Shown one piece after another: positions 14,647 to 43,441 of a stretch of 64,000 bases of DNA. The notes under the pieces are model-generated. The model searched no databases. It was not told the DNA's origin and saw only the letters and a program-made list of their open reading frames with translations. Both the position numbers and the translations under genes were made by a program. Each line of letters starts with the position of its first letter. Position 1 is the first letter of the stretch. The stretch comes from Patescibacteria group bacterium (GTDB taxonomy: Bacteria; Patescibacteriota; Microgenomatia; UBA1400; PJMF01): contig JBGTEY010000009.1 in assembly GCA_041747555.1 (NCBI GenBank), positions 26,473 through 90,472 on the forward strand, given 5' to 3'.

Positions 14647-15921
14647 GTGTATACTATAGCGATGCAATCACCAAACGTTGTCGGCTATGTGGGGAAACCT
14701 TATCTTGAGTTTATTCAGTGGCTTCATGAGCATGGTTTTGAAGTTCATTTATTTCATGATGCCAAGCAGCCAATTCGTGGGGAAGACAGCCTAACTGATC
14801 TCATTAGTGCTACCCACTTACTAGATTTTTCTAACCGCGAAATATTCCTAAAACAAGTGGAGTTGCTCACGGTTTCACCTGCTTTTTTTGTAAACGTTTT
14901 TGAAAATGCAGTGGTACCAAAAACATGGCTCACAGAGCATTTTTCATTACCTGGAATCACCCTTGAGGCAGCTGAGCGTGCTACAGATAAAAGTTTGATG
15001 AGACAGGCCTTTGCGACTCAGTGCGCAGAGTACTCTGCGTACTTCAAAACAATTACTAGCTGGGAAGATATTGAATCAGCGCTTGAAAATAAATCATTTC
15101 ATTTCCCGCTGATTCTCAAACCAACTAATCTTTTTAAAAGTTTACTAGTTACCAAGAGCAACACCGCAAAAGAGCTCAAAAAAAACTTTGATGACAGCCT
15201 CGCCATCATTCAATCAATCTATACAAAAGAACATGTCAGTCGAACTCCAAGTTTTGTTCTAGAAGAGTATCTTGATGGTCCATCCTTCTCGCTAGAAGTG
15301 TTTGTTAATGGTGAGGGAAAAATGGTTAGTGCGCCTTCACCAGTTGATTTGGTGATGGGTAAGGATCTTTCAATAGATGACAACTACAATTATTCAAGAA
15401 AGTTGCCAACCACACTCACAACCAATGAACAACAAGAACTACAACAAGCAGCGTTTGCTGGTGTTCGGGCACTTGAACTTTTTAATAGTCCAGCTCACGT
15501 TGAGCTGGTGTATACCAAAAATGGACCCAAAATTATTGAAATTGGCGCTCGAACTGGTGGATACAGAGCAAGAATGTATAAGCTTGCCCACGGTGTCGAC
15601 TTGTTCCAAGCTCAAATAGATGTTGCACAGGGAAAACTCCCCAATTTAGCTCCCCAAGTAGCAAACTACTGCGCCGTGTATGAATTATTTCCACTTTCGA
15701 AGGGGCATTTTCAGGCCATATCGGATATAGACCAAGTCATGCAAAGTAGCACGTTGTATTATTCTGCTGTACCAGCGAAGTTTGGTGAGTTGGTTGGTCC
15801 ATCAAAAGACGGTTTTCGTTTCAGTGGAGTCTTTATTTTTGCGTCAAATGACGAAGTCTTATTTAAGGAAGAAACTAGTTTCTTCGAACAGCATGCCAAA
15901 GTACTTACGTCATCAGTGTAA
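14647..15921 (+). CDS. ATP-grasp domain ligase (L-amino-acid-ligase/PurK-like)
   Basis: FHFPLILKPTNLFKS, EEYLDGPSFSLEVFV, and HVELVYTKNGPKIIEIGARTGG (the ATP-grasp C-terminal signature). Confidence 0.65.
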   Translation: MYTIAMQSPNVVGYVGKPYLEFIQWLHEHGFEVHLFHDAKQPIRGEDSLTDLISATHLLDFSNREIFLKQVELLTVSPAFFVNVFENAVVPKTWLTEHFSLPGITLEAAERATDKSLMRQAFATQCAEYSAYFKTITSWEDIESALENKSFHFPLILKPTNLFKSLLVTKSNTAKELKKNFDDSLAIIQSIYTKEHVSRTPSFVLEEYLDGPSFSLEVFVNGEGKMVSAPSPVDLVMGKDLSIDDNYNYSRKLPTTLTTNEQQELQQAAFAGVRALELFNSPAHVELVYTKNGPKIIEIGARTGGYRARMYKLAHGVDLFQAQIDVAQGKLPNLAPQVANYCAVYELFPLSKGHFQAISDIDQVMQSSTLYYSAVPAKFGELVGPSKDGFRFSGVFIFASNDEVLFKEETSFFEQHAKVLTSSV

Positions 15922-22794: not shown

Positions 22795-24087
22795 ATGCAA
22801 AACATATCAATTCAAACAGTCGAAGTTCCAGTCAAAGACTTATTTCCAGCAGATTATAACCCAAGATATTGGGATGAAAAAGCTATCCGTGATCTTACAA
22901 AAAGTATTCAAGAGAATGGCTTTGTAATACCTATTCTGGCAAACAGTAATAAATCTCGATATGGGACTGTAATAGCAGGTCACTTTCGTCTCAAGATTGC
23001 AAAAGATTTAAAGTATAAAACTGTACCTGTAAATTTCATCGACATTAGCGACGTAGAGAAAGAAAAAAAGTTAAACCTAACATTAAATCGTGTCTCTGGA
23101 GATTGGGATTATGAACTCTTAAAAAGCTTTGATATTGAGTTGCTTTTGGGATCTGGATTTAACGACCTTGATTTCGGTCATATTTTCGATGACGCACTTG
23201 GAATTGAAGATGATGATTTCGATGCTGAAAAAGAAGCTGCTAAAATCAAGACTCCACGAACAAAACTAGGTGACCTGATCTATCTTGGAGGACTTAACTC
23301 CCATCGGCTCATATGTGGTGATAATAATAATCCGGAAGTCGTAGTAAGACTCATGGGTTCAGATAAAGCCAATATTCTACACTTCGATCCCATCTACAAT
23401 ATCGACCTTAATTACAACAAAGGAGTTGGTAATAAAGGGACGTATGGAAGTCGAAAGGTAAACGATAAGAAACCAGATGATGAATACAGAGCCTTTCTTA
23501 AAACTGTATTTCAAAATGGCTTAACTCATACCCATCCAGACTGTCATGTTTTTTCCTTTTGTGATCAGTCATATATTTGGATGTTGCAAGAATTGTTTGC
23601 CGAACTTGGAATAGATAAGAAGCGTGTGTGTCTGTGGATCAAAAATAATGCCAATATGACACCCCAAGTAGCTTTCAATAAATGCTTTGAGCCCTGCATA
23701 TACGGAACTAGAGGTAATCCATATCTATCTCATATTCACAACCTGAATGAAGTTCTGAATAAAGAAGTTGGTACTGGCAACAGATTAACTGACGACATCA
23801 TGGATCTTTTTGATATTTGGCTTGCAAAGCGTGTTGCTGGGCAAGACTATGAACATCCTACACAAAAGCCTCCTACCTTGTATGAAAAAGCCTTCCGCCG
23901 TTGTACCAAGGCTGGTGATATTATTCTTGATCTTTTTGGCGGTTCAGGAAGTCAGCTAATAGCGGCTGAACAACTGAAACGACGAGCCTTCTTATGTGAA
24001 ATAGATCCCGTCTTCTGTGATGTGATCGTCGCTAGATATCAGCAACTGACTGGAAAGGAGGCCACGTATGTTAATCCAAAAGAATGA
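22795..24087 (+). CDS. ParB-like nuclease domain fused to a DNA methyltransferase (N6-adenine/N4-cytosine)
   Basis: N-terminal ParB/Srx-like region (DLFPADYNPRYWDEKAIRDLTKSIQENGFVIPIL). C-terminal MTase SAM-binding region DLFGGSGSQLIAAEQLKRRAFLCEIDP. Confidence 0.65.
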   Translation: MQNISIQTVEVPVKDLFPADYNPRYWDEKAIRDLTKSIQENGFVIPILANSNKSRYGTVIAGHFRLKIAKDLKYKTVPVNFIDISDVEKEKKLNLTLNRVSGDWDYELLKSFDIELLLGSGFNDLDFGHIFDDALGIEDDDFDAEKEAAKIKTPRTKLGDLIYLGGLNSHRLICGDNNNPEVVVRLMGSDKANILHFDPIYNIDLNYNKGVGNKGTYGSRKVNDKKPDDEYRAFLKTVFQNGLTHTHPDCHVFSFCDQSYIWMLQELFAELGIDKKRVCLWIKNNANMTPQVAFNKCFEPCIYGTRGNPYLSHIHNLNEVLNKEVGTGNRLTDDIMDLFDIWLAKRVAGQDYEHPTQKPPTLYEKAFRRCTKAGDIILDLFGGSGSQLIAAEQLKRRAFLCEIDPVFCDVIVARYQQLTGKEATYVNPKE

Positions 24088-24811
24088 CATTTTTGAGTTA
24101 GGATCACACTATCTTGCCTGCGGTGATGCGCTAGACACAAAAATTGTGAACCGTCTTCTTGGTGATAGGAAAGTTTCTCTAGTTTTGACTGATATGCCGT
24201 ACGGCGTTGGATATGTAGAGAACAAGTTTGAATTTAATCACATCAGTAAGTCGAAAATTATCACGAACGACCACGAACAGACTGACCAAGAATATCGAGT
24301 GTTTACTAAAGGTTGGCTCAATTTGATAAAGCCATACTTGGCCGAAAAGAATAGCTACTATCTTTTTAATTCAGATAAGATGCTTTTTGCCATGCGGGAG
24401 GGGCTGGTTGAGGAAGGATTTAAGTTTGCCCAACTTCTTATCTGGGTTAAAAATCATGTTGTCCTTGGGAGGCTTAATTATCTTCCACAACATGAATTAA
24501 TTGCGTATGGCTGGTATGGCAGACATGCATTCCAGAAATCACAAGATAAAAGCGTCTTGTTTTATCCAAAACCAAACAAGAGCCCACTACACCCAACAAT
24601 GAAACCAGTCGGGTTGCTTCGCAACCTTATCCTAAACAGCTCAAAAACCGATGACTGGGTATATGACCCGTTTCTGGGTTCAGGATCTACTTTGGTGGCG
24701 TGTGAGCAAACCAAGCGAAGGTGTTTGGGGATAGAGCTTGATCCCGAATACTGCCAAGTCATTATTGATCGTTTTGAAAAAGTTACCAATAAAAAAGCTA
24801 AAAAACTATGA
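24068..24811 (+). CDS. DNA methyltransferase (N6-adenine/N4-cytosine, DPPY-type)
   Basis: DMPY motif (LVLTDMPYGVGY) and SAM motif DPFLGSGSTLVACEQTKRRCLGIELDP. Confidence 0.7.
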   Translation: MLIQKNDIFELGSHYLACGDALDTKIVNRLLGDRKVSLVLTDMPYGVGYVENKFEFNHISKSKIITNDHEQTDQEYRVFTKGWLNLIKPYLAEKNSYYLFNSDKMLFAMREGLVEEGFKFAQLLIWVKNHVVLGRLNYLPQHELIAYGWYGRHAFQKSQDKSVLFYPKPNKSPLHPTMKPVGLLRNLILNSSKTDDWVYDPFLGSGSTLVACEQTKRRCLGIELDPEYCQVIIDRFEKVTNKKAKKL

Positions 24812-25245
24812 ATAACAAAGATAACCAAATTACAGTCAGAGATCGTATAAAAGTTGAACAGGATCTATTGGTTGAGCAATTGAAGAAAACTCCAATCGTC
24901 CAAGTAGCCTGTGAGAAATGTGGCGTGGGTCGCTCGACCTACTATCGTTGGAGAAAAGAAGATGCGGAATTTACTCAACAGAGTGACCAGGCATTACTCG
25001 ATGGAAGCCTGTTGGTTAACGATATGGCAGAGTCACAACTGATGAGTGCTATTAAAGATAAAAACATGACGGCTATTATTTTTTGGTTAAAACACCATCA
25101 TCCTGCGTACCTTACTAAGGTCGAGATTACTTCAAGTCAAATGAAAGACCCGATGCTAACAGCAGAACAAGAAGACTCAGTCAGGAAAGCTTTGCTCATG
25201 GCAGGAATCATTAAACCAGAGGTGCAAAAAATAGAAAATGAATAA
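24808..25245 (+). CDS. Putative terminase small subunit (HTH)
   Basis: HTH segment (ACEKCGVGRSTYYRWRKED) directly upstream of the terminase large subunit, with a 4-bp overlap. Confidence 0.45.
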   Translation: MNNKDNQITVRDRIKVEQDLLVEQLKKTPIVQVACEKCGVGRSTYYRWRKEDAEFTQQSDQALLDGSLLVNDMAESQLMSAIKDKNMTAIIFWLKHHHPAYLTKVEITSSQMKDPMLTAEQEDSVRKALLMAGIIKPEVQKIENE

Positions 25246-26770
25246 CACTATATTAGATCAATTATTTGCAGATCAGTCTGTTCGGAGAGAATCAGCAAGA
25301 CAAAGCCATATTCTCTTCTTTCATATGTATTTTAGTGAGTATGTAAAATATCCAACTGCCGACTTTCAAAAGACGATTTTTAAACTTACACAGAAAAGTA
25401 ACTGTCCAGAAGTATTCATTATGGCTTTTCGTAGTTCAGGTAAAACAACCATCCTAAGTAACTCGTACCCAATCTGGGCAATTATTGGTGAGCAACAGAA
25501 AAAGTTTGTTGTTATCGTGAGTCAAACACAAAGCCAGTGTAGGCAAATCCTTAACAATATAAGGAGAGAATTAGAATCAAACGATCTTCTCAAAAAGGAT
25601 TTTGGACCATTTACTGATGGGACTGGCGAGTGGAGTTCAAGCTCACTTGAACTAACTAAATATGGTGCAAGAATTACTGCTGTATCTACTGGGGAAAGTA
25701 TACGTGGACTCAGGCATGGCCCTCATCGACCAGACCTGATAATTCTGGATGACGTAGAGGATATCAATTCGGTCAAGACATTAGATAACAGACAAAGCAT
25801 TTATCGTTGGTTTACCAGTGAAATTAAACCCCTTGGTGATATTGGAACGAGAATTGTCGTGGTTGGGAATCTCCTCCATGAGGATTCATTAATGATGAAG
25901 CTTAAAGAATATGACAATAATATTGGGCAAAATAGTGTATTTATTGAATTCCCACTTGTTGATGAGGATGGTGTAATTCTTTGGCCGCAAAAGTTTACAC
26001 AAGAAAGAATTGATGAACTGAGACGCGAAACAATTGATAGTGGTTCATTTGAGCGAGAGTACTTGCTTCAGATTGTTCCAGATGATCAGCAAATCATACA
26101 AAGATCGTGGATCAAGAAGTACAGTATTATTCTTCCAGCGAGAGAGATTCCAAGACCGAGAATGATTTTGATTGCAATTGATCTTGCTATCAAAAAGGGT
26201 GATGGGCGAGATTTTACCTCGATGGTTCCAATGTATGTAACAGGATATGATAAAACTCTCCAAGCATATGTTCTGCCTAACATAATCAATAAACAACTAG
26301 ACTTTCCTGAAACCGTTGAAGCAATTAAAAAATTACATGCGGAATTGAAAGAAACCTTTGGCATCATTCCTAGGATTTTTGTAGAAAGTGTTGGATATCA
26401 GGATGCGGTGGTACAACAATTATTTTTGGTAGAGAAACTCATGGCAGAACCAGTATCAGTTGGGCACCTCGATAAAGCTTCTCGATTGAGGCTTGTTTCT
26501 CCATATGTGCAACTTGGAAAGGTATTCTTCCCTGAATTGGGAGCCGAGCCATTGATAAATCAGTTGCTCAACATTCATTCCACTAAACATGATGATCTGG
26601 CAGATGCCTTTACTATTGGATTAAGCAAAATTATTGAAAGTGATCAGCCTTATTATTCAACCAGGATTAAGACTGAGGATAAGCCACATTATGTACTAAA
26701 TGAGATTACTGGACAATGGCACGATCTATCAAAACCATTCACAGCTGGTATGTTAGATATGAAGTATTAG
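25238..26770 (+). CDS. Phage terminase large subunit
   Basis: Walker A motif (AFRSSGKTTIL), Walker B motif (DLIILDDVED), and a C-terminal RNaseH-like nuclease half. Confidence 0.75.
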   Translation: MNNTILDQLFADQSVRRESARQSHILFFHMYFSEYVKYPTADFQKTIFKLTQKSNCPEVFIMAFRSSGKTTILSNSYPIWAIIGEQQKKFVVIVSQTQSQCRQILNNIRRELESNDLLKKDFGPFTDGTGEWSSSSLELTKYGARITAVSTGESIRGLRHGPHRPDLIILDDVEDINSVKTLDNRQSIYRWFTSEIKPLGDIGTRIVVVGNLLHEDSLMMKLKEYDNNIGQNSVFIEFPLVDEDGVILWPQKFTQERIDELRRETIDSGSFEREYLLQIVPDDQQIIQRSWIKKYSIILPAREIPRPRMILIAIDLAIKKGDGRDFTSMVPMYVTGYDKTLQAYVLPNIINKQLDFPETVEAIKKLHAELKETFGIIPRIFVESVGYQDAVVQQLFLVEKLMAEPVSVGHLDKASRLRLVSPYVQLGKVFFPELGAEPLINQLLNIHSTKHDDLADAFTIGLSKIIESDQPYYSTRIKTEDKPHYVLNEITGQWHDLSKPFTAGMLDMKY

Positions 26771-34150: not shown

Positions 34151-35464
34151 ATGAAAGATAATATCAGGCTAAAATACTGCTTATACGCCCGTAAATCAAG
34201 CGAATCGGACGAACGACAAGCAATGTCCATTGACGGTCAGCTCAAAGAAATGCAGCTTCTTGCCAAGAGAGAGAAGCTCGACATTACGGAAACAATTACA
34301 GAAAGCCACTCTGCCAAAGAATCAGGACAACGACCAGAGTTTAATAATCTTCTCCATGGAGTAATCGAAGGAAGATATAACAGCATCCTCACATGGGCAC
34401 CCGATCGGTTATCTCGAAATGCTGGTGACTTAGGACGAATCGTTGATTTAATGGATCAAGGCAAACTGACTCATATCAAAACTTATTCTCAATCTTTCAC
34501 AGACAATCCAAATGAGAAATTCTTACTGATGATTCTCTGCTCACAAGCAAAGCTGGAGAATGATAATCGAGGCGTCAATGTTAAACGAGGATTACGGAAC
34601 AAATGCCAGATTGGGATTAGACCAGGGGTTGCACCGATCGGCTATCGAAACGTGCTGAAAGTAAATCGCATCTCAACAGTGGAGCTAGATCCTGAACGAG
34701 CACCCGTCATTAAGCAGATATTTCACAAAGTTGCTGATCAAGGGTTCTCTGGTCGAATGGTTAAAAAATGGCTGGACGATATCGGATTCACCACAAAGAG
34801 TGGATGCAAAATGCCACTGAGCAAAATCTATGTCGCCCTCCAAAATGCTTTTTACTACGGCGAATTTCAGTATGGAAACATATGGTACAAAGGCACCTAC
34901 GAGACACTCATCACAAAAGCGTTATTTGAAAGAGTCCAAATCCAACTCCAAGTTGCACCGAGACAATGGAATAAACAACTGTTTCCGTTCAAGAAAATTT
35001 GTATTTGCGGATCATGCGGTGGAAGTGTTACGGCAGAACTCAAATATAGAAGAACCAAAGCAAACATCGTTAACTCACATATTTATTATCACTGTAATCG
35101 AATCAAGAAATATGATTGTCCTGAGCCCTATATTACGGAGCAGGAGTTGATCAAACAACTCATCGGTTATTTACCAAAAATTAAACTCAACACCTCGTAC
35201 TTAATGCAGGAGTTCGAGATAGAAGTGAAACGGTTACAACATTTTAAAGCAACCGTGACTAGTGACTATATACCCCGAGTTGAGATTACTCCTCATAATA
35301 CTGGCGACCAAAATCCCAGAGAATATAACGAAACACATACAGAGATGCTTAAAGAATACCTTCTCCATGTCCTTCAGTTTGGAACTCCAGAGGAACGACT
35401 CAAAATCCTCAAAGGAGTTACTTCAAAATTCAGTCTGAGAGACAGACAACTTAATCTCCAGTAA
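34151..35464 (+). CDS. Large serine recombinase (integrase of the island)
   Basis: N-terminal resolvase/invertase catalytic domain (YARKSSESDERQAMSIDGQL), recombinase domain, and Zn-ribbon Cys cluster (CICGSCGGSV...CNRIKKYDC). It lies about 250 bp from the tRNA-Ser(GCT) 3' end. Confidence 0.8.
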   Translation: MKDNIRLKYCLYARKSSESDERQAMSIDGQLKEMQLLAKREKLDITETITESHSAKESGQRPEFNNLLHGVIEGRYNSILTWAPDRLSRNAGDLGRIVDLMDQGKLTHIKTYSQSFTDNPNEKFLLMILCSQAKLENDNRGVNVKRGLRNKCQIGIRPGVAPIGYRNVLKVNRISTVELDPERAPVIKQIFHKVADQGFSGRMVKKWLDDIGFTTKSGCKMPLSKIYVALQNAFYYGEFQYGNIWYKGTYETLITKALFERVQIQLQVAPRQWNKQLFPFKKICICGSCGGSVTAELKYRRTKANIVNSHIYYHCNRIKKYDCPEPYITEQELIKQLIGYLPKIKLNTSYLMQEFEIEVKRLQHFKATVTSDYIPRVEITPHNTGDQNPREYNETHTEMLKEYLLHVLQFGTPEERLKILKGVTSKFSLRDRQLNLQ

Positions 35465-35715
35465 ATCTGCAAAAAGTACGCAATTTCTTCAAAAGAAAAA
35501 GATTCGAACGAGCGTATTTCATTAAAATAGGGCTAAAAGTAGCTCTTTTCATCAAAAGATTAGAACCGAGCGCAAATGCCTTGAGGGTCATTTAGGCGAT
35601 TTTCAACATTACAGGCTATGTTTGGGATACTTGCGATTTCTCTCGCTTTTTTAGCAAGCCACATCAAACTAATCGAGCATAGTAGATGGGTCTTGGAGCA
35701 ACCGAAGACCTTCTG

Positions 35716-35800
35716 CGGAAGCGGTGGGATTCGAACCCACGAACCGGAAACCCGGTCAAGGTTAGCAACCTTGTGCAATTGGCCACTATGCGACGCTTCC
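35716..35800 (-). tRNA. tRNA-Ser (anticodon GCT), with attR in its 3' end
   Basis: Acceptor GGAAGCG/CGCTTCC. Anticodon stem CAAGG/CCTTG with loop TTGCTAA. Long variable arm CCGG-gttt-CCGG. T-arm GTGGGTTCGAATCCCAC. Discriminator G. Confidence 0.8.
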
Positions 35801-35934: not shown

Positions 35935-37074
35935 ATGTTTGATCCAACTCTTTCACTAGTATCTAGAGCGCAACCTGGTCTGGCCGCAGAAGAATTAGAA
36001 ACACCAATTGGCGTTGAATCAACACCCCAACCCCCAGACAGTGAGCAACTTTTGGAGCAATCGACACACCTCTATGATATGGCACAAAAATACTGGGATT
36101 CAGTGCTTGGGCGAAAAAGAAGTCCAGAATATGGTTTTAACAGCAAAACCACCCAAGATAGGGAATCTTTATTATTAAGAAAATTTGACATATTAAAGAC
36201 GCCAAGCCCTAACGGTATGGAGATAGACCCAGAAACAGGTGAAGAGGTAGATCGCGACACACTCATTCTTAGTACCCACGAACTCCTCATTGAGCAGATT
36301 CTTTCAGATATGGTTGAAGCCACAAAGCAGCAGGCTGCTATTACTAATGAAATAACTAGACAGCGAGAAAAACTGACAAGTGATGATTTGCAGCATCTAA
36401 AAATAGCTCGTGCTGAACTTTTACAGCTAGCTACTGCCCAATCTGGTTTAGAAAAGTATCTTAGTGCAGCAAAAAAAGGTGTAGAAAACTATGAATTGCA
36501 CGCACATGCAATTGACAAGGATAGTAAATATAACTCGTTCATGAAAAAAATGCTTGGCCTGTATCGGGAGCAAGCAGGAGCTGAATTTGACGAAATGCAA
36601 AGAGACGGCTCTCAGTTGACTGGGACCTTTGGTTGGCAAACTGATGCACTTCTAGGTGGTAGCAAAATCCAAGCATTATATGAAGATATGGATGACCGAA
36701 TTACAAGGTTGGAAGCGGGTGAGCAGAGCGTAGAGGTGATACACACTGATTTGAGCGAGGAGGATCAGGGCGAGGTTGCTGAGGAGGTTCACGATGAAGC
36801 AGCACCTGTTCCTGGTGCGGAAGAAGCACCCGTAGTACCTGCTTCTCAAGCTGAAGTAGAGCCAGCAGTGAGTCCGCAGGAAATATCAGCTGAAATTCTA
36901 GAAGAACGCGCATCTATTTCACAGGAACAAACGTCGGCACCTTTAGACGCTAGTGCACCGAATGAGCGGTTTCATGTAGAGCAAGGCAACCAAGAACTTT
37001 CAGATCCTGAAGTACCAGTGCCACCTGTAGAAGAAGTAGCACCGGACGATCCAAATCACAGACTAGCATCATAA
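35935..37074 (+). CDS. Hypothetical acidic protein
   Basis: ORF only, with an Asp/Glu/Pro-rich C-terminal half. Confidence 0.45.
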   Translation: MFDPTLSLVSRAQPGLAAEELETPIGVESTPQPPDSEQLLEQSTHLYDMAQKYWDSVLGRKRSPEYGFNSKTTQDRESLLLRKFDILKTPSPNGMEIDPETGEEVDRDTLILSTHELLIEQILSDMVEATKQQAAITNEITRQREKLTSDDLQHLKIARAELLQLATAQSGLEKYLSAAKKGVENYELHAHAIDKDSKYNSFMKKMLGLYREQAGAEFDEMQRDGSQLTGTFGWQTDALLGGSKIQALYEDMDDRITRLEAGEQSVEVIHTDLSEEDQGEVAEEVHDEAAPVPGAEEAPVVPASQAEVEPAVSPQEISAEILEERASISQEQTSAPLDASAPNERFHVEQGNQELSDPEVPVPPVEEVAPDDPNHRLAS

Positions 37075-37176: not shown

Positions 37177-37260
37177 GGAGGTGTCGCGTAGTGGTCTATC
37201 GCAAACGCCTGGAAAGCGTTGGCTCCTTGAGCCCCGTGGGTTCGAATCCCACCACCTCCG
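37177..37260 (+). tRNA. tRNA-Ser (anticodon GGA)
   Basis: Acceptor GGAGGTG/CACCTCC. Anticodon stem AACGC/GCGTT with loop CTGGAAA. Long variable arm GGCTC-cttg-GAGCC. T-arm GTGGGTTCGAATCCCAC. Discriminator G. Confidence 0.8.
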
Positions 37261-37424
37261 CATTGATAAAAATTTGGCTTTAGCCAAATATTTATCAATA
37301 TTGCATAGGATGAGAAGTTTATGCCCGATCAAGCGAAATCATTCAGCTTATGGAAATTTGAGCCTGACGAGGGTAAATCCCACCACCTCCGCATTGATAA
37401 AAATTTGGCTTTAGCCAAATATTT
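37245..37424. repeat. 49-bp perfect direct repeat (two copies, 37245..37293 and 37376..37424) spanning the last 15 nt of tRNA-Ser(GGA) plus a downstream hairpin
   Basis: The sequence aatcccaccacctccgcattgataaaaatttggctttagccaaatattt occurs twice, about 82 bp apart, and contains a TTGGCT..AGCCAA hairpin. Confidence 0.7.
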
Positions 37425-37521
37425 TAACAAATCAATGCCTCAAAATACATGCTTATAGTTTGTAATAATAATTCATTCGTGTATACTAAAATTAGTAATA
37501 AGATAGTAAGGGAACACTACT

Positions 37522-37650
37522 ATGTTCGACACAGAAAACCCAACTTTTGCGGTTTCACTTCAAGAGAGTGAAGCACCAATGCCACCCGCAGAAGGTAAAG
37601 AAACATCAGGACCGACAAACCCAGAGTGGGCTGATCCTGATAACGATTAA
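37522..37650 (+). CDS. Graspetide (microviridin-like omega-ester peptide) precursor, 42 aa
   Basis: MFDTENPTFAVSLQESEAPMPPAEGKETSGPTNPEWADPDND. The leader carries PTFAVSL (similar to the PFFARFL recognition motif), and the core is Thr/Ser- and Asp/Glu-rich. The stop lies 5 nt before the ATP-grasp maturase start. The ORF is too short to appear in the ORF track. Confidence 0.55.
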   Translation: MFDTENPTFAVSLQESEAPMPPAEGKETSGPTNPEWADPDND

Positions 37651-37655
37651 GCTAT

Positions 37656-38651
37656 ATGAAGTTTTTAGTCCTTTCTCATAAAAAGGATCTACACGTCAGA
37701 GCTGTTCAGAAGCATTTCTTGAACAGCTCTGATTTTTTGTTTATAAATCCAGCGTCCAAATCTGATCTTCGATATACCTATACCAGTGATGGTATGCAGG
37801 TTTTTTGCAATAATGAACTAATTCCGCTGTCTGACATACAGGCGGTTTGGACACGGAAGTATTCTTCTGCCGCATTTAGAGATCTCTATACTGAGCAAGA
37901 TACTGATCTAGAAATTCTCCAAAAGAAGCACAAGAGTATGACACAAGTAGCTTTTTTGAGAGAGTTGAGTGCTCATATAAAATTTGCAAATCCAAGCTGC
38001 TTATTTGTTAATTTTTTTCTGGATAACTTGAGAAATGAGTACAGACTGCTCCAACTTACCATGGCAAAAGACATTGGATTTACTATTCCCAACACATTGG
38101 TGTCTGAAAATAAAAAAGAAATTTTGCAGTTCTTAAATAGTCATGCATCCGTCACAAAGAGACTCTATCAGGGGGGTGTCTCATTTGGCAAAATCGGTCA
38201 TTCTTTTGGAACACTTGCGATAACTGCTTCAGATATTAAAAATCCTGATCAAAAATATTATGATTCACCTGTTTTTTTGCAAGAAAACGTTTCAAAAGAA
38301 TATGAATTACGAGTTACCGTGATTGGAAAGAAGATATTTGCCTGTAAGTTCGACAACCAGCGAGATAATTTAGCAGAAAAATCAAAACTCGATTGGAGGT
38401 TTGGCATACGGTCAATTCCGCATACTACTTACAAACTCCCTGAGCAAATTAAAGAAATGTGTTTCACATTACTAAAAAAAATGGGCCTACAATACGGCGC
38501 CATTGACATGATTAAAACCAAAGATGGACGGTATGTTTTCTTAGAAATAAACGCAAACGGCCAATTTCTTTGGATTGAAGAAGCTACGGGCATGGAAATG
38601 AGCAAAGCAATGGCGGAGTTATTGATGAACCCGAAGAAAAATAGACTTTGA
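37656..38651 (+). CDS. ATP-grasp ribosomal peptide maturase (MdnC/MdnB-like graspetide ligase)
   Basis: 331 aa. YELRVTVIGKKIFACKF...DWRFG...YGAIDMIKTKDGRYVFLEINANGQFLWIE closely parallels the MdnC segment LELRITIVGEQIF...DWRK...YGAIDMIVTPDERYIFLEINPVGEFFWLE. Confidence 0.75.
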   Translation: MKFLVLSHKKDLHVRAVQKHFLNSSDFLFINPASKSDLRYTYTSDGMQVFCNNELIPLSDIQAVWTRKYSSAAFRDLYTEQDTDLEILQKKHKSMTQVAFLRELSAHIKFANPSCLFVNFFLDNLRNEYRLLQLTMAKDIGFTIPNTLVSENKKEILQFLNSHASVTKRLYQGGVSFGKIGHSFGTLAITASDIKNPDQKYYDSPVFLQENVSKEYELRVTVIGKKIFACKFDNQRDNLAEKSKLDWRFGIRSIPHTTYKLPEQIKEMCFTLLKKMGLQYGAIDMIKTKDGRYVFLEINANGQFLWIEEATGMEMSKAMAELLMNPKKNRL

Positions 38652-38710: not shown

Positions 38711-39184
38711 ATGAGATCAACAGAACGCAGCTACGGATTTCTCCTTAAACCCATCGACGCAGAGCAACAACCGCTTCGTATCACTGCTGGTGAGCTTCAC
38801 AAGAATCGAGAAGCGTATAAAGACATGGTGGTTGAGGTTTCTGGTATTCTCAGAGCAATTCATTATCAAATGGGCGGGGACAGTAGAATTTCTGTCGTGG
38901 CTGAAGAGTTAGTAGTCAGTAGCGGTTGGCGTCAGTTTTATGTCGTTATTGACGGTTCAGACTTGTCTGTTATGCCTGTTGCCGAACCCCTTAATCGAAA
39001 TCAATGGAAAGATCTTGAGGGAAAGCGAGTTACCATGAAAGTAGCAGTTAGAGAAATCAAGGGTCCGATGAAACTTCTCACCAAACTGAGAAACTCACTC
39101 GTCTCTGATGAGCACAAAGTAACCTGCATTCCTCAAATTTTAGAGTTAGCTGAAGATGACGGTATAAAAATCGAATTGCTGTAG
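38711..39184 (+). CDS. Hypothetical protein
   Basis: ORF only. Confidence 0.4.
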   Translation: MRSTERSYGFLLKPIDAEQQPLRITAGELHKNREAYKDMVVEVSGILRAIHYQMGGDSRISVVAEELVVSSGWRQFYVVIDGSDLSVMPVAEPLNRNQWKDLEGKRVTMKVAVREIKGPMKLLTKLRNSLVSDEHKVTCIPQILELAEDDGIKIELL

Positions 39185-39235: not shown

Positions 39236-42200
39236 TCACCCACCCTGAACATACGAATTCTTAATTCGAATTTTTCCGCGCTTAAACTCGATTTTGATGT
39301 CAATTTTTGGATCTCTTCCTCTTCTTGAATTGAGTAAACTGACCGCGAAGCGTTGGAAATCTTGGTCAGCGAGACATTTTTTTACAATCAAAGCAAAATC
39401 TTGAGAGAGGCCATCGCTGGTGTCTGTAAGTTGAGCTGAAAACGTTTTTCCATCTGGTTGTATTCTTAGTGCTATTTCCAAATTTTTTGTGAGTGAATCG
39501 CCACTAGCATCGGTAAACGTACCTACATCTGTGGTTAGATTATAAATAAGAAGTGAGCTCAAGATTATTTCTTCTCGATACATCATGTCATTTCTTAACA
39601 TTAAATTTTCTTGATCGACGGTAATTTGTTCTTCAACTGATTGTATTGGTCCCTCTGCATTTATGGGTGGTTTCTCTGGTGCTTCTGCTGCGTCAAGTTG
39701 AACATCGCGTTCATTCAGCCAGATGTTAACTCCTGCCTGGACATCGGGGCCTCTGAAGCCAAGAGCCACGGCATTTTCAACGCCATTTCTAAGGAGTGCC
39801 TCTCTGGCTTTGGTGGGCAGCTGGGCGAGTTTTAACTTGCTAAACGGTGAGGATGAGTCAAAATTCGCTGCTGCTGCAGTGCCTAAGAACATAATATTTG
39901 GATGATTTTTGAGCGTGTCTGCTACTGGTACTGCTTTCCCTGGTAGTGTCAGGGGTTCTCTGGCTGAAGTGGGTGTGTTTGCTTTTCTTATATCCATGGT
40001 GTCGCCCTGCTCAAGGAGTGGTGCAAGTACTTTATCCAAATTTGGTTTAAAGCCAGCAGTTGATACAACACGGTCTGCTTTTATGACGTTGCCAATTTTA
40101 TCTTTGATCGCCTGACCGCTGCCATCGAACACTGAGAGTTTTTCTGGATCATCCTCTGCCTCATCAACATCATCCACTCTAGTTCTGATTTGTTCGACCA
40201 ACGCTTTGTTTCCGTTCCTGCCTTTGACGTCGGTAATTCTTGCGTATCTAGGTCGTTTACTGAGATCTGTATTCGAGATTATATATATTTTCTCTATATT
40301 TCTGATAGCGTTGTTGTCCCCTTGAGCGAATATCCCTGCAAGATATTCGATGAGTACGTCTGCAGAGTTACCACTACCAATGATTACGATAGTTTCTCCA
40401 ATGTCTCTTTCTTTCTCACCCTTTCTATTGGCTATCTCATTGAAGTAATCAAGGGTTGAGGAGAGTAGTTTTTTGCCTTTTCGAGTCGTTTTGTTTACGA
40501 TTTTTTCTGCACGCTTACCTTTGGTGTCAAATCCTAGCGTTGACTCTCCGAGACCTGATGAAATAAATACGCCATCCGTTCGCACAGTTTTTGTAAGAAC
40601 TGTTCCATCTGCCTGAGTTATTGCTAGATCTGCGAGGTACATTCCTCGTTGGTTTGAATCCGTGTTTTCTCGAATGCTGGTAACTACTGTTTTTAGTAAT
40701 GCTTTTTTAACAAGAAGTGCAGCTTGTGCTTGTACTAACGCTGCCAATTCTTCGTTGGTGGGATACTGATTTAAGGATAAATTGTCAGTGGTGGGTAGAA
40801 AATCGACTGTAGTATTGATGCTCCCCGTTCGTACTGCACTGCCCTCATTTCTTTCACCCGGATAAATTCTCAAGGGGGAACCAAACCCTCGCACTGTTTC
40901 CTTTTCGGGCACTGGTGGTAAATCGGGCAACCGAATTCCTTCTTTTCTTCTATTTGCACTGTTAAGTTCCCATGCAGCACCTCCAGGAATCGCAAACGGT
41001 CCACCGGGTTGTTCACCTTGATCCACAAACAGTGTATTAGCGAGTAAGCCAGGGTTTTGTCGCGCAAGTTCACCAGCAGCATTCACACCATTTGGCCCAA
41101 GTCCGATTTGTAGGAGCGGAACATAGTCATTGTCATTGAGTGATTCTTCAGTTTTTTTAGATAGTGATTCAAAGTGGTGCCGTAAGTAGGTATCTGTGAC
41201 CGCAAATTCTTGACTAAGAATTGCTACAAGGTGTGGGTTCATGACAGTCATCAATTCCACTGATCGAATATATTCTTCCTCAGTAGGAGAAAGCTCTCTT
41301 TGCGCGCGAAGCTCATTGAGTCGCTGGGTATATAAGAGTTTTGGATCAGATCCGGTGACACGTCCGGTGATCGGATCAATTTCTCTCATTAAATAGCGAT
41401 TAATTTGAGTCGCCGATGTTGGTGATGCTCTTAAAGTTTGAAACAGAGGCTGAAACACTTCAGAAAAATTACCGCCTAAAAACCTGAGAGCTGCTTTATT
41501 TCTATCTAAGCTCGGCTCAAGATACCTGATCGCAAGTTGATCTTGGAGTTGCTGTCTAAGATCGCCGGCGATACTTGTATCAAAGAAATCAGCATCTTCT
41601 GCAGCGATGAAGGTTGTGAATTCAGATTCAAGTAAAGTTTGAATTTGAGAAGCTACAACTCTAGATTCTTTTAGATTTGGATTTGGAACAAAACCAGATC
41701 GAATACGATCGAGTACTGCTTGCGGATTTCCAGACCGAAATTGACTCCGAATCTCATTTGCCTCTGCTAGTAATTTGTAGACCATAAGTTGGTTGGACAG
41801 CTCAACAGCGTCTTCTCTAATTTTTTGCACCTCACCAAAAAAATCGTATCCATTTACACTTGGCTGAATTGGAAATGAATCTAAAGCAAGCAGAACTGCT
41901 TCTGGAGAAAAGGCAATTCCATTTGAAAACTCATTAGAAATTGTTATCTTCAGGTCATTTATTAATCGTTTATACATTATTACTCGCAAAAAGTTTCCGA
42001 GTTTTACGTCATTTGGTGATTCGCTTTTCTCAAGCTGAGTGACCGTTACTAGGCCGGTGCCTCCATTTTTGATCTCTTGAGCAAAAGAAATGATTTTTCT
42101 TCTTCGTCTAGATTGGTAGGCAATAACAATTAATTCACGAACGACGGCGGTTTCTTCACTATTTCGTGCGTTAAATGAATTTACTGCATTTATTTGACTG

Positions 42201-43441
42201 TCGAATGGATCGCTTTCAGTTCTTTCAAATGAGAAAAAAACTTGCTCTAAGTTCAGTATTCGGATGAGCGAGGCGACTTCGGTAAAGATGGCTACTGCTT
42301 CTTCATATAATGCAATGGACTCTCTCCTGATAATGAGGAGAAAACTATCCATTGTTTTGGGTGCTTCAGTTAATTGAGCAAATTCATTTTTTACGAGGTC
42401 AAACGAGGCTTTATATTGTGGGGAGAGTTTAGTTTCAAAATCTGCTACACGGTTTCCTATTTCCAGCAAGTCAGATTGATTTTCGCGTAATGCATTAACA
42501 CTCTCTACACTCGGCTCGTCTTCATAATCTGTGCCAGCCATCTCAATTCCAAAAGTTCTTTTAATAGTAGCTGGTATGGTGATGTCGTTTCCATCTGAGC
42601 TAGCGAAATATTCGTTACCTCTTTGATTTCTTTTTATAAAATTTGATTGAAAAAGCACATCTTTAACACGAGGAGTGAGTAATTCATTACCTAATAGTGC
42701 CTTTAAGAAAAAAATTGAGGCTTCCACATCAGTCTGACTTTTTCCAGACGCTTGTTCGTCTAAAACGGAGTCAATGAGTTCTAAAATCTCTTTCTGATTT
42801 TCTCGAAGTACATTGACGCTATCTTCGGTCGGCTCGTCGTCATAGTCAAGCCGAACCATTTGTATTCCATACTTACTTCTCACTTGAGTTGATATAAAGA
42901 CATCGTTTCCATCTGAATTTGCGTAATAATCTTCTCCAGTATTTGTTTTCCTGACAAAAGTAGATCGAAATAGTACATCCTGAACTGGTGGAGAGAGTTT
43001 GCCTTCAAGTCTATCTTCAATGAGGCTGAGAGACGTTTCAATCTGCCTCTTTTCATCTAGCAGGGACATTTTTTCACTCAAAATTTTTCGGAGAACGTCG
43101 AAGACTTCGGCATTCTTCTGTCTAAATCGATCAACACTTTCTACCGTGGGCTCGTCGTCAAATTCAGTCCGAACCATTTCTATACCAAGCGTTCTTTGAA
43201 GTGGTGGGGGAAAGTTAACGTCGTTTCCTGTATCAGAAATATAGTACCTGACACCTCCAACGACATTAATTCGTGTCGAGGTAAGAAGTATATTGACTTG
43301 CGCAGCAGATAGCCGAGAGTTTAGTATTGCATCCAAAACAAACAAACTTTCCTGACTTTTATTTAGCAGTTTAGCCACTTCTGGTGAAGATTGTTCCTGT
43401 TCTTGTAGAGGTTCTCGGAGCGTAAAAGTGTTTTCAAGCAT
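39236..43441 (-). CDS. Giant multidomain protein (1401 aa): N-terminal 3x ~110-aa tandem repeats plus a C-terminal class-B flavoprotein (N-hydroxylating monooxygenase-like) domain
   Basis: Three tandem units share ...DGNDV.I......G I(E/Q)M.....(D/E)DEP(T/S)(V/E)(E/D)SV...R(E/Q)N.... FAD-like motif IGLGPNGVNAAGELA (GxGxxN/G). NAD(P)-like motif IVIIGSGNSADVLIEYL (GxGxxA). ATG-like motif VVSTAGFKPN. These three match the SidA/PvdA/IucD-type NMO fingerprints. Confidence 0.6.
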   Translation of the reverse strand: MLENTFTLREPLQEQEQSSPEVAKLLNKSQESLFVLDAILNSRLSAAQVNILLTSTRINVVGGVRYYISDTGNDVNFPPPLQRTLGIEMVRTEFDDEPTVESVDRFRQKNAEVFDVLRKILSEKMSLLDEKRQIETSLSLIEDRLEGKLSPPVQDVLFRSTFVRKTNTGEDYYANSDGNDVFISTQVRSKYGIQMVRLDYDDEPTEDSVNVLRENQKEILELIDSVLDEQASGKSQTDVEASIFFLKALLGNELLTPRVKDVLFQSNFIKRNQRGNEYFASSDGNDITIPATIKRTFGIEMAGTDYEDEPSVESVNALRENQSDLLEIGNRVADFETKLSPQYKASFDLVKNEFAQLTEAPKTMDSFLLIIRRESIALYEEAVAIFTEVASLIRILNLEQVFFSFERTESDPFDSQINAVNSFNARNSEETAVVRELIVIAYQSRRRRKIISFAQEIKNGGTGLVTVTQLEKSESPNDVKLGNFLRVIMYKRLINDLKITISNEFSNGIAFSPEAVLLALDSFPIQPSVNGYDFFGEVQKIREDAVELSNQLMVYKLLAEANEIRSQFRSGNPQAVLDRIRSGFVPNPNLKESRVVASQIQTLLESEFTTFIAAEDADFFDTSIAGDLRQQLQDQLAIRYLEPSLDRNKAALRFLGGNFSEVFQPLFQTLRASPTSATQINRYLMREIDPITGRVTGSDPKLLYTQRLNELRAQRELSPTEEEYIRSVELMTVMNPHLVAILSQEFAVTDTYLRHHFESLSKKTEESLNDNDYVPLLQIGLGPNGVNAAGELARQNPGLLANTLFVDQGEQPGGPFAIPGGAAWELNSANRRKEGIRLPDLPPVPEKETVRGFGSPLRIYPGERNEGSAVRTGSINTTVDFLPTTDNLSLNQYPTNEELAALVQAQAALLVKKALLKTVVTSIRENTDSNQRGMYLADLAITQADGTVLTKTVRTDGVFISSGLGESTLGFDTKGKRAEKIVNKTTRKGKKLLSSTLDYFNEIANRKGEKERDIGETIVIIGSGNSADVLIEYLAGIFAQGDNNAIRNIEKIYIISNTDLSKRPRYARITDVKGRNGNKALVEQIRTRVDDVDEAEDDPEKLSVFDGSGQAIKDKIGNVIKADRVVSTAGFKPNLDKVLAPLLEQGDTMDIRKANTPTSAREPLTLPGKAVPVADTLKNHPNIMFLGTAAAANFDSSSPFSKLKLAQLPTKAREALLRNGVENAVALGFRGPDVQAGVNIWLNERDVQLDAAEAPEKPPINAEGPIQSVEEQITVDQENLMLRNDMMYREEIILSSLLIYNLTTDVGTFTDASGDSLTKNLEIALRIQPDGKTFSAQLTDTSDGLSQDFALIVKKCLADQDFQRFAVSLLNSRRGRDPKIDIKIEFKRGKIRIKNSYVQGG
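42286..43336. repeat. Three in-frame tandem DNA repeats (~330 bp each) encoding the N-terminal repeat units of the giant protein
   Basis: Recurring DNA blocks, for example ...gacgctatcttcggtcggctcgtcgtcatagtcaagccgaaccatttg... and ...cactttctaccgtgggctcgtcgtcaaattcagtccgaaccatttc.... These are coding repeats, not CRISPR. Confidence 0.6.

Follow-up and report, generated by a model that had tools for sequence, protein, structure and literature searches.

Within a 64,000-nucleotide (nt) stretch of contig JBGTEY010000009.1 from a Patescibacteria group bacterium (assembly GCA_041747555.1), referred to here as the window, a gene for a 42-amino-acid (aa) peptide lies immediately upstream of a gene for a 331-aa ATP-grasp enzyme. 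We propose that the two genes form a minimal, probably functional cassette for a graspetide, an omega-ester peptide of the class of peptides made on ribosomes and modified after translation (RiPPs), in a Microgenomates-group bacterium of the candidate phyla radiation (CPR); on the sequence and modelling evidence presented below, we place the probability of this reading at about 0.8. The gene pair itself, the coding potential of its small member, the family and fold of the enzyme, its intact catalytic positions and the CPR host are established by our analysis. An original prediction, drawn from the letters of the window, had claimed that a graspetide precursor gene is coupled to a graspetide-type ATP-grasp macrocyclase, and this claim survives all of the tests that we ran.

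Recognition of such a cassette requires that its short open reading frame (ORF) be a real gene. The ORF terminates with TAA (37648-37650) and is separated by a 5-nt spacer, gctat (37651-37655), from the ATG of the ATP-grasp ORF at 37656; between this ATG and the preceding in-frame stop there is no other possible start. Positions, sequences and the 5-nt gap are all as the original prediction had given them. Because 42-codon open frames are no rarity in DNA of 40% GC, the content of the ORF was tested. A codon-usage log-odds table, for which 37 long ORFs from the window served as training set, scores it at +16.9 bits in its own frame, or 0.40 bit per codon, and the five remaining frames over the same stretch give -50 to -0.2 bits. 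Genuine-gene windows of 42 codons average 9.8 +/- 4.2 bits, and 0.40 bit per codon is out of reach for all 314 ORFs of 30-80 aa taken from wrong frames (maximum, 0.32). We conclude that the small ORF at 37522-37650 is very likely coding, beyond a chance open frame. The locus had been described as unannotated, a description that does not hold for public data: the exact 42-aa protein is present in an NCBI- and Logan-derived protein collection, and an independent gene caller predicts the ORF on a Logan contig. The contig is found in the Logan run SRR28170463. The unmodified peptide, Met1 included, has a monoisotopic mass of 4547.95 Da. Upstream of its start codon lie a sigma-70-like promoter site and a Shine-Dalgarno-like AAGGGA (Table 1), both well placed and neither statistically distinctive; eight promoter-like sites occur in the region compared with 6.0 +/- 2.5 in shuffled sequence, so the promoter-like site is supported by its position and not by statistics.

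The C-terminal part of the peptide has the composition expected of a graspetide core. The putative core, TSGPTNPEWADPDND, offers three hydroxyl donors (T28, S29 and T32) followed by four acidic acceptors (E35, D38, D40 and D42), with K26 just upstream. Its arrangement, T28-SGP-T32-NPEWADP-D40-N-D42, fits TxxxTx(6-10)Dx(1-4)D, the core signature that Makarova et al. (2022; PMC8939145) derived for the first of two CPR branches of graspetide loci. As a null set we used all 498 ORFs of 30-80 aa in the six frames of the whole window: the signature is found in the last 25 residues of one of them, the precursor alone, and in 8 of 6036 small ORFs across 163 related loci. Two of the 498, the precursor included, have at least three Thr/Ser and at least four Asp/Glu in their last 15 residues. 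The original prediction had described the core as free of lysine and the product as carrying esters only. The first point is correct for the core as drawn, but Lys26 precedes Thr28 by two residues and makes the restriction to esters insecure; it depends on where the core starts.

In the N-terminal part, the heptapeptide PTFAVSL can be compared with the microviridin leader motif PFFARFL, with which it agrees at P, F3, A4 and L7 (four of seven positions) and from which it differs by the missing Arg and two missing aromatic residues. A loose P-x-h-h motif is present, as it is in 49 of the 498 null ORFs (~10%), and the leader motif is therefore weak evidence when taken alone. The surrounding sequence NPTFAVSLQE resembles the published CPR leaders LPLTFEFGE, VPFALRACE, LVPFAALFADF and IPILVDLEQE, and the C-terminal DPDND resembles the precursor ends GYDSD, GYDGDID and TTDPD from the same organisms. 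By analogy with the MdnC-MdnA and PsnB-PsnA2 pairs, PTFAVSL may be the segment that binds the enzyme.

Assignment of the second gene to the graspetide ligases rests on several independent comparisons. Against NCBIfam hidden Markov models (HMMs), the enzyme scores 157.8 bits with TIGR04187 (E 3.6e-46), 149.2 with MvdD, 134.9 with MvdC and 104.7 with grasp-with-spasm, whereas the non-graspetide models TIGR00768 (rimK_fam) and glutathione synthase give 38.4 and 12 bits, which are under their own cut-offs of 143.4 and 299. The graspetide-maturase score is thus 4-fold above that of RimK, the opposite of the RimK or GshB grouping that the original prediction had named as its refutation. A sequence search of the PDB returned graspetide ligases only (MdnC, CdnC, MdnB, AMdnB, 9bou and PsnB, with PruB also named among the matches), headed by MdnC (5ig9, E 1.6e-30) and CdnC (7mgv, E 8.5e-27) and with PsnB weak at E 1.3e-5; no RimK, GshB or Ddl chain was found at E 0.01 or better. 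An AlphaFold2 model built from 40 relatives has a predicted local distance difference test score (pLDDT) of 89.1 and a predicted TM-score (pTM) of 0.89. Its best Foldseek match in the PDB is MdnC bound to MdnA (E 4.8e-24, TM 0.76-0.79, 26% identity), and ranks 1-32 are occupied by MdnC, PruB, CdnC, AMdnB, PsnB and MdnB (E 4.8e-24 to 6e-16), with RimK appearing from rank 33.

Residues expected to be important for catalysis are intact. The enzyme keeps 22 of the 22 columns that are invariant in the 40 relatives, including K168, K214, E217, R219, D246, R248, D284, E297 and N299, together with W65 and R67, which are nearly invariant. The blocks ELRVTVIG, DWRFG and YGAIDMIKTKDGRYVFLEINANGQFLWIE, quoted in the original prediction, are all present. 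D246-W247-R248 constitutes a D(F/W)R loop, a feature that is essential in PsnB and typical of graspetide ligases according to the PsnB study, from which we also took the roles of individual residues (PsnB Arg213 and Arg72, and the Mg ligands D...ExN). Motif context suggests that R219 is the equivalent of PsnB R213 and R67 that of PsnB R72.

It is also conceivable that the enzyme belongs with RimK, GshB or Ddl among the non-RiPP ATP-grasp ligases and would add amino acids to a C-terminus or make a small metabolite, and that the acidic tail of the peptide is a coincidence or marks the substrate of a RimK-like tailing reaction. A generic RimK-type ATP-grasp domain is the sole Pfam model above threshold on the enzyme (27.9 bits), and the peptide shares a terminal acidic run with ribosomal protein S6, the substrate of RimK. 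We consider this explanation very improbable, given that RimK models reach at most 38 bits vs 105-158 for the four graspetide-maturase models, that RimK, GshB and Ddl chains are absent from the PDB sequence matches, that RimK structures rank under all six graspetide ligases, and that the graspetide-typical DWR loop is present. On its sequence and modelled fold, the enzyme groups with graspetide macrocyclases rather than with RimK.

Phylogenetic analysis by neighbor joining (NJ) with bootstrap resolved one grouping only, a clade that was recovered in 89 of 100 bootstraps and unites the enzyme with two metagenomic proteins, P0002 and P0003. Next to this three-member clade stood a Buchananbacteria enzyme in 25 bootstraps, a Paceibacterota enzyme in 9 and thuringinin-like enzymes in 9; the CPR enzymes retrieved for comparison are 29-33% identical to ours. 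Both members of the clade are preceded by a small co-oriented ORF. One of these ORFs, cut at its 5' end by the contig, ends 8 nt upstream of its enzyme gene and encodes ...KATKTGRYPHPDIVDD; the other ends 19 nt upstream and encodes MPKNEGPSPEIAPIQSPLAKKDFVKPKQRGSGPTVTISTTGKEIDDQILTE, with the tail ...RGSGPTVTISTTGKEIDDQILTE. In each, as in our precursor, an acidic tail comes after a Thr/Ser-Gly(-Pro-Thr) stretch; neither can be aligned with our precursor as a homologue. A separate conserved small ORF was noticed upstream of graspetide-type ATP-grasp genes in three loci from Woesebacteria- or Microgenomatus-type genomes (L023, 3720-3932; L044, 3452-3634; L087, 139-297). It encodes ...TTLDFRFxLxLPxxRxVxIITxRDxYGRII... 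and has no acidic tail, and may represent a different, unrecognized precursor or partner family.

These comparisons bear on a second explanation, in which the enzyme is a true graspetide macrocyclase and the 42-aa ORF is not its substrate, the precursor being encoded elsewhere or by the neighboring 379-aa or 157-aa ORF. Many CPR branch-2 enzymes are without findable adjacent precursors (Makarova et al., PMC8939145), graspetide synthetases can cyclize proteins (PMC12291112), the peptide has no homologues that might confirm its role, and the 379-aa ORF, like the precursor, begins MFD..PT. Set against this, no other of the 498 small ORFs has so strong a coding signal or a tail in which donors are followed by acceptors, the 42-aa ORF occupies the canonical position 5 nt upstream of the ligase gene, and a small upstream ORF is found in both of the nearest relatives as well; the N-terminal likeness of the 379-aa ORF is not significant, being equalled or exceeded by 315 of 2000 shuffles. 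A substrate other than the 42-aa peptide seems to us improbable.

Two candidate relatives of the peptide were rejected. The first came from an HMMER search, in which the sole non-self matches were to P0214 (1902 aa) and P0215 (2654 aa), proteins with ~104-aa tandem repeats of the form TIYVSLYDxGGPxPPxxGxET..NNFxW that are 37-47% identical to residues 8-39 of the peptide; the acidic tail is not covered, and the match is probably due to chance inflated by repetition. The second was paralogy with the 379-aa ORF, to which the precursor is linked by a 23-nt DNA repeat: BLASTP leaves the two N-termini unaligned, and the shuffling result given above shows no significant likeness.

Several observations weigh against a functional graspetide cassette, and they fall into three groups. 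The first concerns the precursor. A regular-expression test showed that it does not contain the strict leader signature of Makarova et al., Phhx(1,2)h within the first 30 residues, because Thr8, which follows Pro7, is not hydrophobic; in the published set that signature occurs in only ~50% of precursors, and the GG cleavage site is usually missing (PMC8939145). Of the PFFARFL-like leader proposed in the original prediction, the four identities out of seven stand, and its value as a recognition motif is reduced by the failed strict pattern and the non-specific loose one. An exhaustive HMMER search of 1.84 billion representative proteins found no relatives of the precursor, which leaves no conservation by which leader, core or purifying selection might be confirmed. 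Moreover, the upstream peptides of P0002 and P0003 do not match the TxxxTx(6-10)Dx(1-4)D expression.

The second group concerns the enzyme, which falls short of every curated NCBIfam cut-off (350 bits for TIGR04187, GRASP_SAV_5884; 475 for TIGR04184, MvdD; 425 for TIGR04185, MvdC; and 230 for TIGR04192, grasp-with-spasm) and is therefore a member of none of those named families; nor does the Pfam model of the MvdD pre-ATP-grasp domain match it. In the alignment from the PDB sequence search, residues L196, L199 and F206 of MdnC, which form the pocket for the leader Phe according to the PsnB study, are paired with P197, K200 and L208. The enzyme is an orphan: a search of 5.8 billion proteins gave a closest match with 45% identity across 62% of the enzyme, it is at most 36% identical to any relative in a trimmed alignment of 165 sequences, and scans of GTDB genomes and JGI metagenomes found no closer relatives. 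The third group concerns the neighborhood. Family searches found no peptidase, transporter/exporter or known accessory gene near the cassette, and the M20 enzyme encoded at a distance of 7 kb is an ArgE/DapE-type protein. Within 33-43 kb, family matches are limited to this ATP-grasp, a serine recombinase and CobW, with no GNAT or second graspetide ligase among them and the remaining ORFs without a confident family; the original prediction had likewise noted that no GNAT, peptidase or exporter gene adjoins the cassette.

Taking the cassette to be functional, we can suggest how it might operate from the family chemistry that Carter et al. (2026; PMC13097080) and the PsnB study summarize; leader binding, the residues that are linked, processing and biological role are all inferred. 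The precursor would be made from its own promoter and ribosome-binding site, and the ATP-grasp gene would probably be co-transcribed and translationally coupled with it, since it starts 5 nt after the precursor ends. The leader (approximately residues 1-25, with a hydrophobic patch at P7-L13 and Phe9 as the likely anchor) could dock on the central domain of the ATP-grasp and activate the enzyme. A carboxylate of the core (E35, D38, D40 or D42) would then be gripped by the conserved Arg and phosphorylated by ATP, and the hydroxyls of T28, S29 and T32 would attack the acyl phosphates to form macrolactones as the cycle repeats. Each ring should lower the mass by 18 Da. Up to three esters might form in this way, with a lactam to K26 as a possible fourth linkage. 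Ring connectivity may be nested or crossed, and by analogy with hairpin-type graspetides and the TxxxT...DxD core of CPR branch 1 the likeliest pairs would be T28/T32 with D40/D42. Leader removal and export would depend on functions that are not encoded locally. By analogy with the usual role of the class, the product may be a protease inhibitor.

Among known systems, the cassette is most readily compared with the graspetide loci of CPR branch 1, whose hosts include Woesebacteria, Gottesmanbacteria, Yanofskybacteria, Parcubacteria and CPR1 (PMC8939145). Like them it combines a CPR host, a single ATP-grasp with a small precursor beside it, a Pro-hydrophobic patch no later than residue 30, the branch-1 core pattern, an Asp-rich C-terminus without a canonical GG site, and an uncharacterized product. 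In contrast to branch 1, in which the ATP-grasp is often adjoined by a cluster-23 lipoprotein (PMC8939145), the cassette lacks the strict leader signature and a nearby gene for a cluster-23 lipoprotein, TPR protein or metallopeptidase, and its precursor is unrelated in sequence to the published clusters. Its enzyme groups only with P0002 and P0003, and may or may not fall in the branch-1 clade.

The resemblance to microviridin, the group 1 graspetide, had been stressed in the original prediction, and here we find it overstated. Microviridin biosynthesis employs the MdnA precursor, the MdnB and MdnC ligases and the GNAT enzyme MdnD (structure 5IG9), and its core, TxKxPSDx(D/E)(D/E), acquires two esters and one Lys amide. 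Among solved structures, MdnC matches our enzyme best by both sequence and fold, the leader P-x-F-A-x-x-L is comparable to PFFARFL, and by analogy the chemistry of the cassette should be ATP-dependent esterification of side chains. However, TSGPTNPEWADPDND does not conform to the microviridin core, a single ligase stands in place of the pair, no GNAT is present, PTFAVSL has no counterpart of the Arg in PFFARFL, the scores are far under the MvdC and MvdD equivalog cut-offs, and the residues of the MdnC leader-Phe pocket are not conserved. The cassette is not a microviridin system.

Hairpin-type graspetides, which comprise plesiocin (group 2; PsnA2/PsnB, TTxxxxEE) and the thuringinin-like precursors (groups 3-6; Makarova cluster 13), provide a further comparison. 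They too use a single ligase with a D(F/W)R loop and a conserved Arg to form esters from Thr donors to downstream acidic acceptors, and the thuringinin-like enzymes make up a clade next to our three-member clade in the 165-sequence NJ tree, a placement found in only 9 of 100 bootstraps. The cassette precursor differs in having a single, Pro-rich core in place of repeats, Asp in place of Glu acceptors, other spacing and a leader that is not of the MRPLILEF type, and PsnB is a weak sequence match of the enzyme. In the recent survey of Carter et al. (PMC13097080), 21,584 predicted graspetides were placed in 43 groups; groups 27, 28 and 35 comprise nothing beyond a synthetase and a precursor, and candidate phyla are abundant in groups 27 and 42. 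The minimal two-gene architecture of our locus is shared with groups 27, 28 and 35, and group 27 includes many candidate-phylum genomes, but in the representative of that group (Ca. Angelobacter) the leader, LARMQARVL...GG, and the cores, which contain Cys, are unlike the 42-aa peptide. The peptide itself is absent from the part of that data set covered here.

Graspetide cassettes in CPR bacteria are already published, and what we describe belongs to a known kind of system, as a divergent orphan within a well-known RiPP class. The expectation that a graspetide in such a bacterium would be notable is accordingly dated, CPR loci being described both by Makarova et al. (PMC8939145) and by Carter et al. 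(PMC13097080). One orphan is added to a class of more than 21,000 predicted members (PMC13097080), which leaves knowledge of the class unchanged and makes the finding only modestly surprising. In the literature that we searched, no experimentally characterized graspetide from CPR bacteria or Patescibacteria was reported, and Makarova et al. have raised the question of a role for graspetides in episymbiosis (PMC8939145). With genes of 129 and 996 bp and a single core, the cassette is near the minimal size for a system of this kind, which makes it convenient to reconstitute in a heterologous host and to use in studying the recognition of a divergent leader.

Table 1. Positions of the cassette, its signals and other features discussed, in coordinates of the window.
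Feature	Position	Strand	Remarks
Precursor peptide gene	37522-37650	+	42 aa plus stop, encodes MFDTENPTFAVSLQESEAPMPPAEGKETSGPTNPEWADPDND; ORF confirmed
Putative leader recognition motif P7-T-F-A-V-S-L13	37540-37560	+	4/7 positions match PFFARFL
Putative core T28-S-G-P-T32-N-P-E35-W-A-D38-P-D40-N-D42 (TSGPTNPEWADPDND)	37603-37647	+	Placement of leader/core boundary inferred
Graspetide-type ATP-grasp macrocyclase, 331 aa	37656-38651	+	NCBIfam, PDB sequence and AlphaFold2/Foldseek matches
Promoter-like site	37460-37487	+	TTGTAA, 16 nt, TATACT; sigma-70-like; 35 nt upstream of precursor start codon; consensus match only
Shine-Dalgarno-like AAGGGA	37508-37513	+	8 nt before ATG at 37522; read from sequence, putative function
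157-aa ORF	38711-39184	+	59 nt downstream of ligase, co-oriented; starts MRSTERSYGF
1401-aa ORF	39236-43441	-	Convergent with cassette; no confident family, no PDB sequence match
tRNA-Ser(gga)	37177-37261		
379-aa ORFan	35935-37074	+	No family; very acidic, C-terminus Pro/Glu-rich
tRNA-Ser(gct)	35715-35800	-	Adjoins serine integrase
Large serine recombinase/integrase	34151-35464	+	Resolvase, Recombinase and Zn_ribbon_recom domains; phrog_95, E 3.9e-56
Phage-like block	22795-26770	+	Two ParB-domain/DNA-methyltransferase ORFs, terminase small and large subunits
Terminase large subunit	25238-26770	+	phrog_38, E 6.9e-81
Terminase small subunit	24808-25245	+	
Second, unrelated ATP-grasp	14647-15921	+	Best NCBIfam: alanine-anticapsin ligase BacD, 67 bits, far under cut-off

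The small-genome CPR host anticipated in the original prediction is borne out by the DnaG encoded in the window, which is 89% identical to a partial protein from a "Microgenomates group bacterium" and 50-59% identical to many others, those named being from Pacebacteria, Woesebacteria and Patescibacteria. Judged by this sequence, the host is a CPR bacterium. The contigs that carry the DnaG relatives P0096 and P0109 extend only ~3.4 kb upstream of dnaG.

The surroundings of the cassette have a mobile flavor and contain many ORFans. An exact 49-nt direct repeat (37245-37293 and 37376-37424, 131 nt apart) lies 98 nt upstream of the precursor and consists of the last 17 nt of tRNA-Ser(gga) plus the next 32 nt, which form a hairpin; a degenerate similarity to the T-arm (TTGAGCC...) immediately precedes the second copy. 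This repeat looks like an att-type scar of integration or excision at the 3' end of the tRNA gene. An Rfam scan of 33-44 kb detected the two tRNAs and nothing else. The two tRNA-Ser genes are inverted with respect to each other and flank the 379-aa ORFan, and the 3' end of tRNA-Ser(gct) is 93% complementary over 28 nt to that of tRNA-Ser(gga).

Such a setting raises the alternative that the cassette, decaying or silent, is carried as a passenger in a variable region rich in mobile elements and yields no mature product. The exact duplication of the tRNA-Ser 3' end, the integrase and phage-like genes upstream, the ORFan character of all neighboring ORFs, the missing leader peptidase and exporter, and the orphan status of both enzyme and peptide are in keeping with it. 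Decay or silence would nevertheless be hard to reconcile with two intact ORFs, an enzyme that retains all 22 invariant positions and is modelled with a confident fold, and a peptide gene whose codon usage is host-like and strongly coding; in addition, a synthetase with only a precursor is a recognized architecture (groups 27, 28 and 35; PMC13097080). We therefore think it unlikely that the cassette is a mere passenger, and favor a functional graspetide locus.

The 157-aa ORF downstream of the ligase may be co-transcribed with the cassette. Searches of Pfam, NCBIfam and PHROG place it in no family, it has no relative among 5.8 billion proteins, its single-sequence AlphaFold2 model is unusable (pLDDT 33), and inspection revealed no signal peptide in it and nothing lipoprotein-like in the neighboring ORFs. 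A bolder proposal would make the locus the founder of an undescribed graspetide group, with a Pro-rich single core (TSGPTNPEWADPDND) of unseen ring topology and a non-canonical leader (PTFAVSL, which lacks both an Arg and a second aromatic residue), carried as cargo on a tRNA-Ser-linked mobile island in a CPR episymbiont, with the 157-aa ORFan as partner or immunity protein and a product acting on host or competitor proteases. We offer this as a speculation with a small chance of being correct.

Other features of the window are farther removed from the cassette in position or function. The N-terminal coding part of the convergent 1401-aa ORF contains three ~318-nt tandem DNA repeats (42489-43228), and its residues ~771-1137 weakly resemble FAD/pyridine-nucleotide oxidoreductases. 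The phage-like block may be a prophage remnant in the CPR genome, and metabolic genes (ParA-like, Orn/DAP decarboxylase, PALP-rhodanese, cysteine desulfurase and CobW) are located between it and the integrase. The second ATP-grasp, which is BacD-like, is encoded 22 kb from the graspetide cassette.

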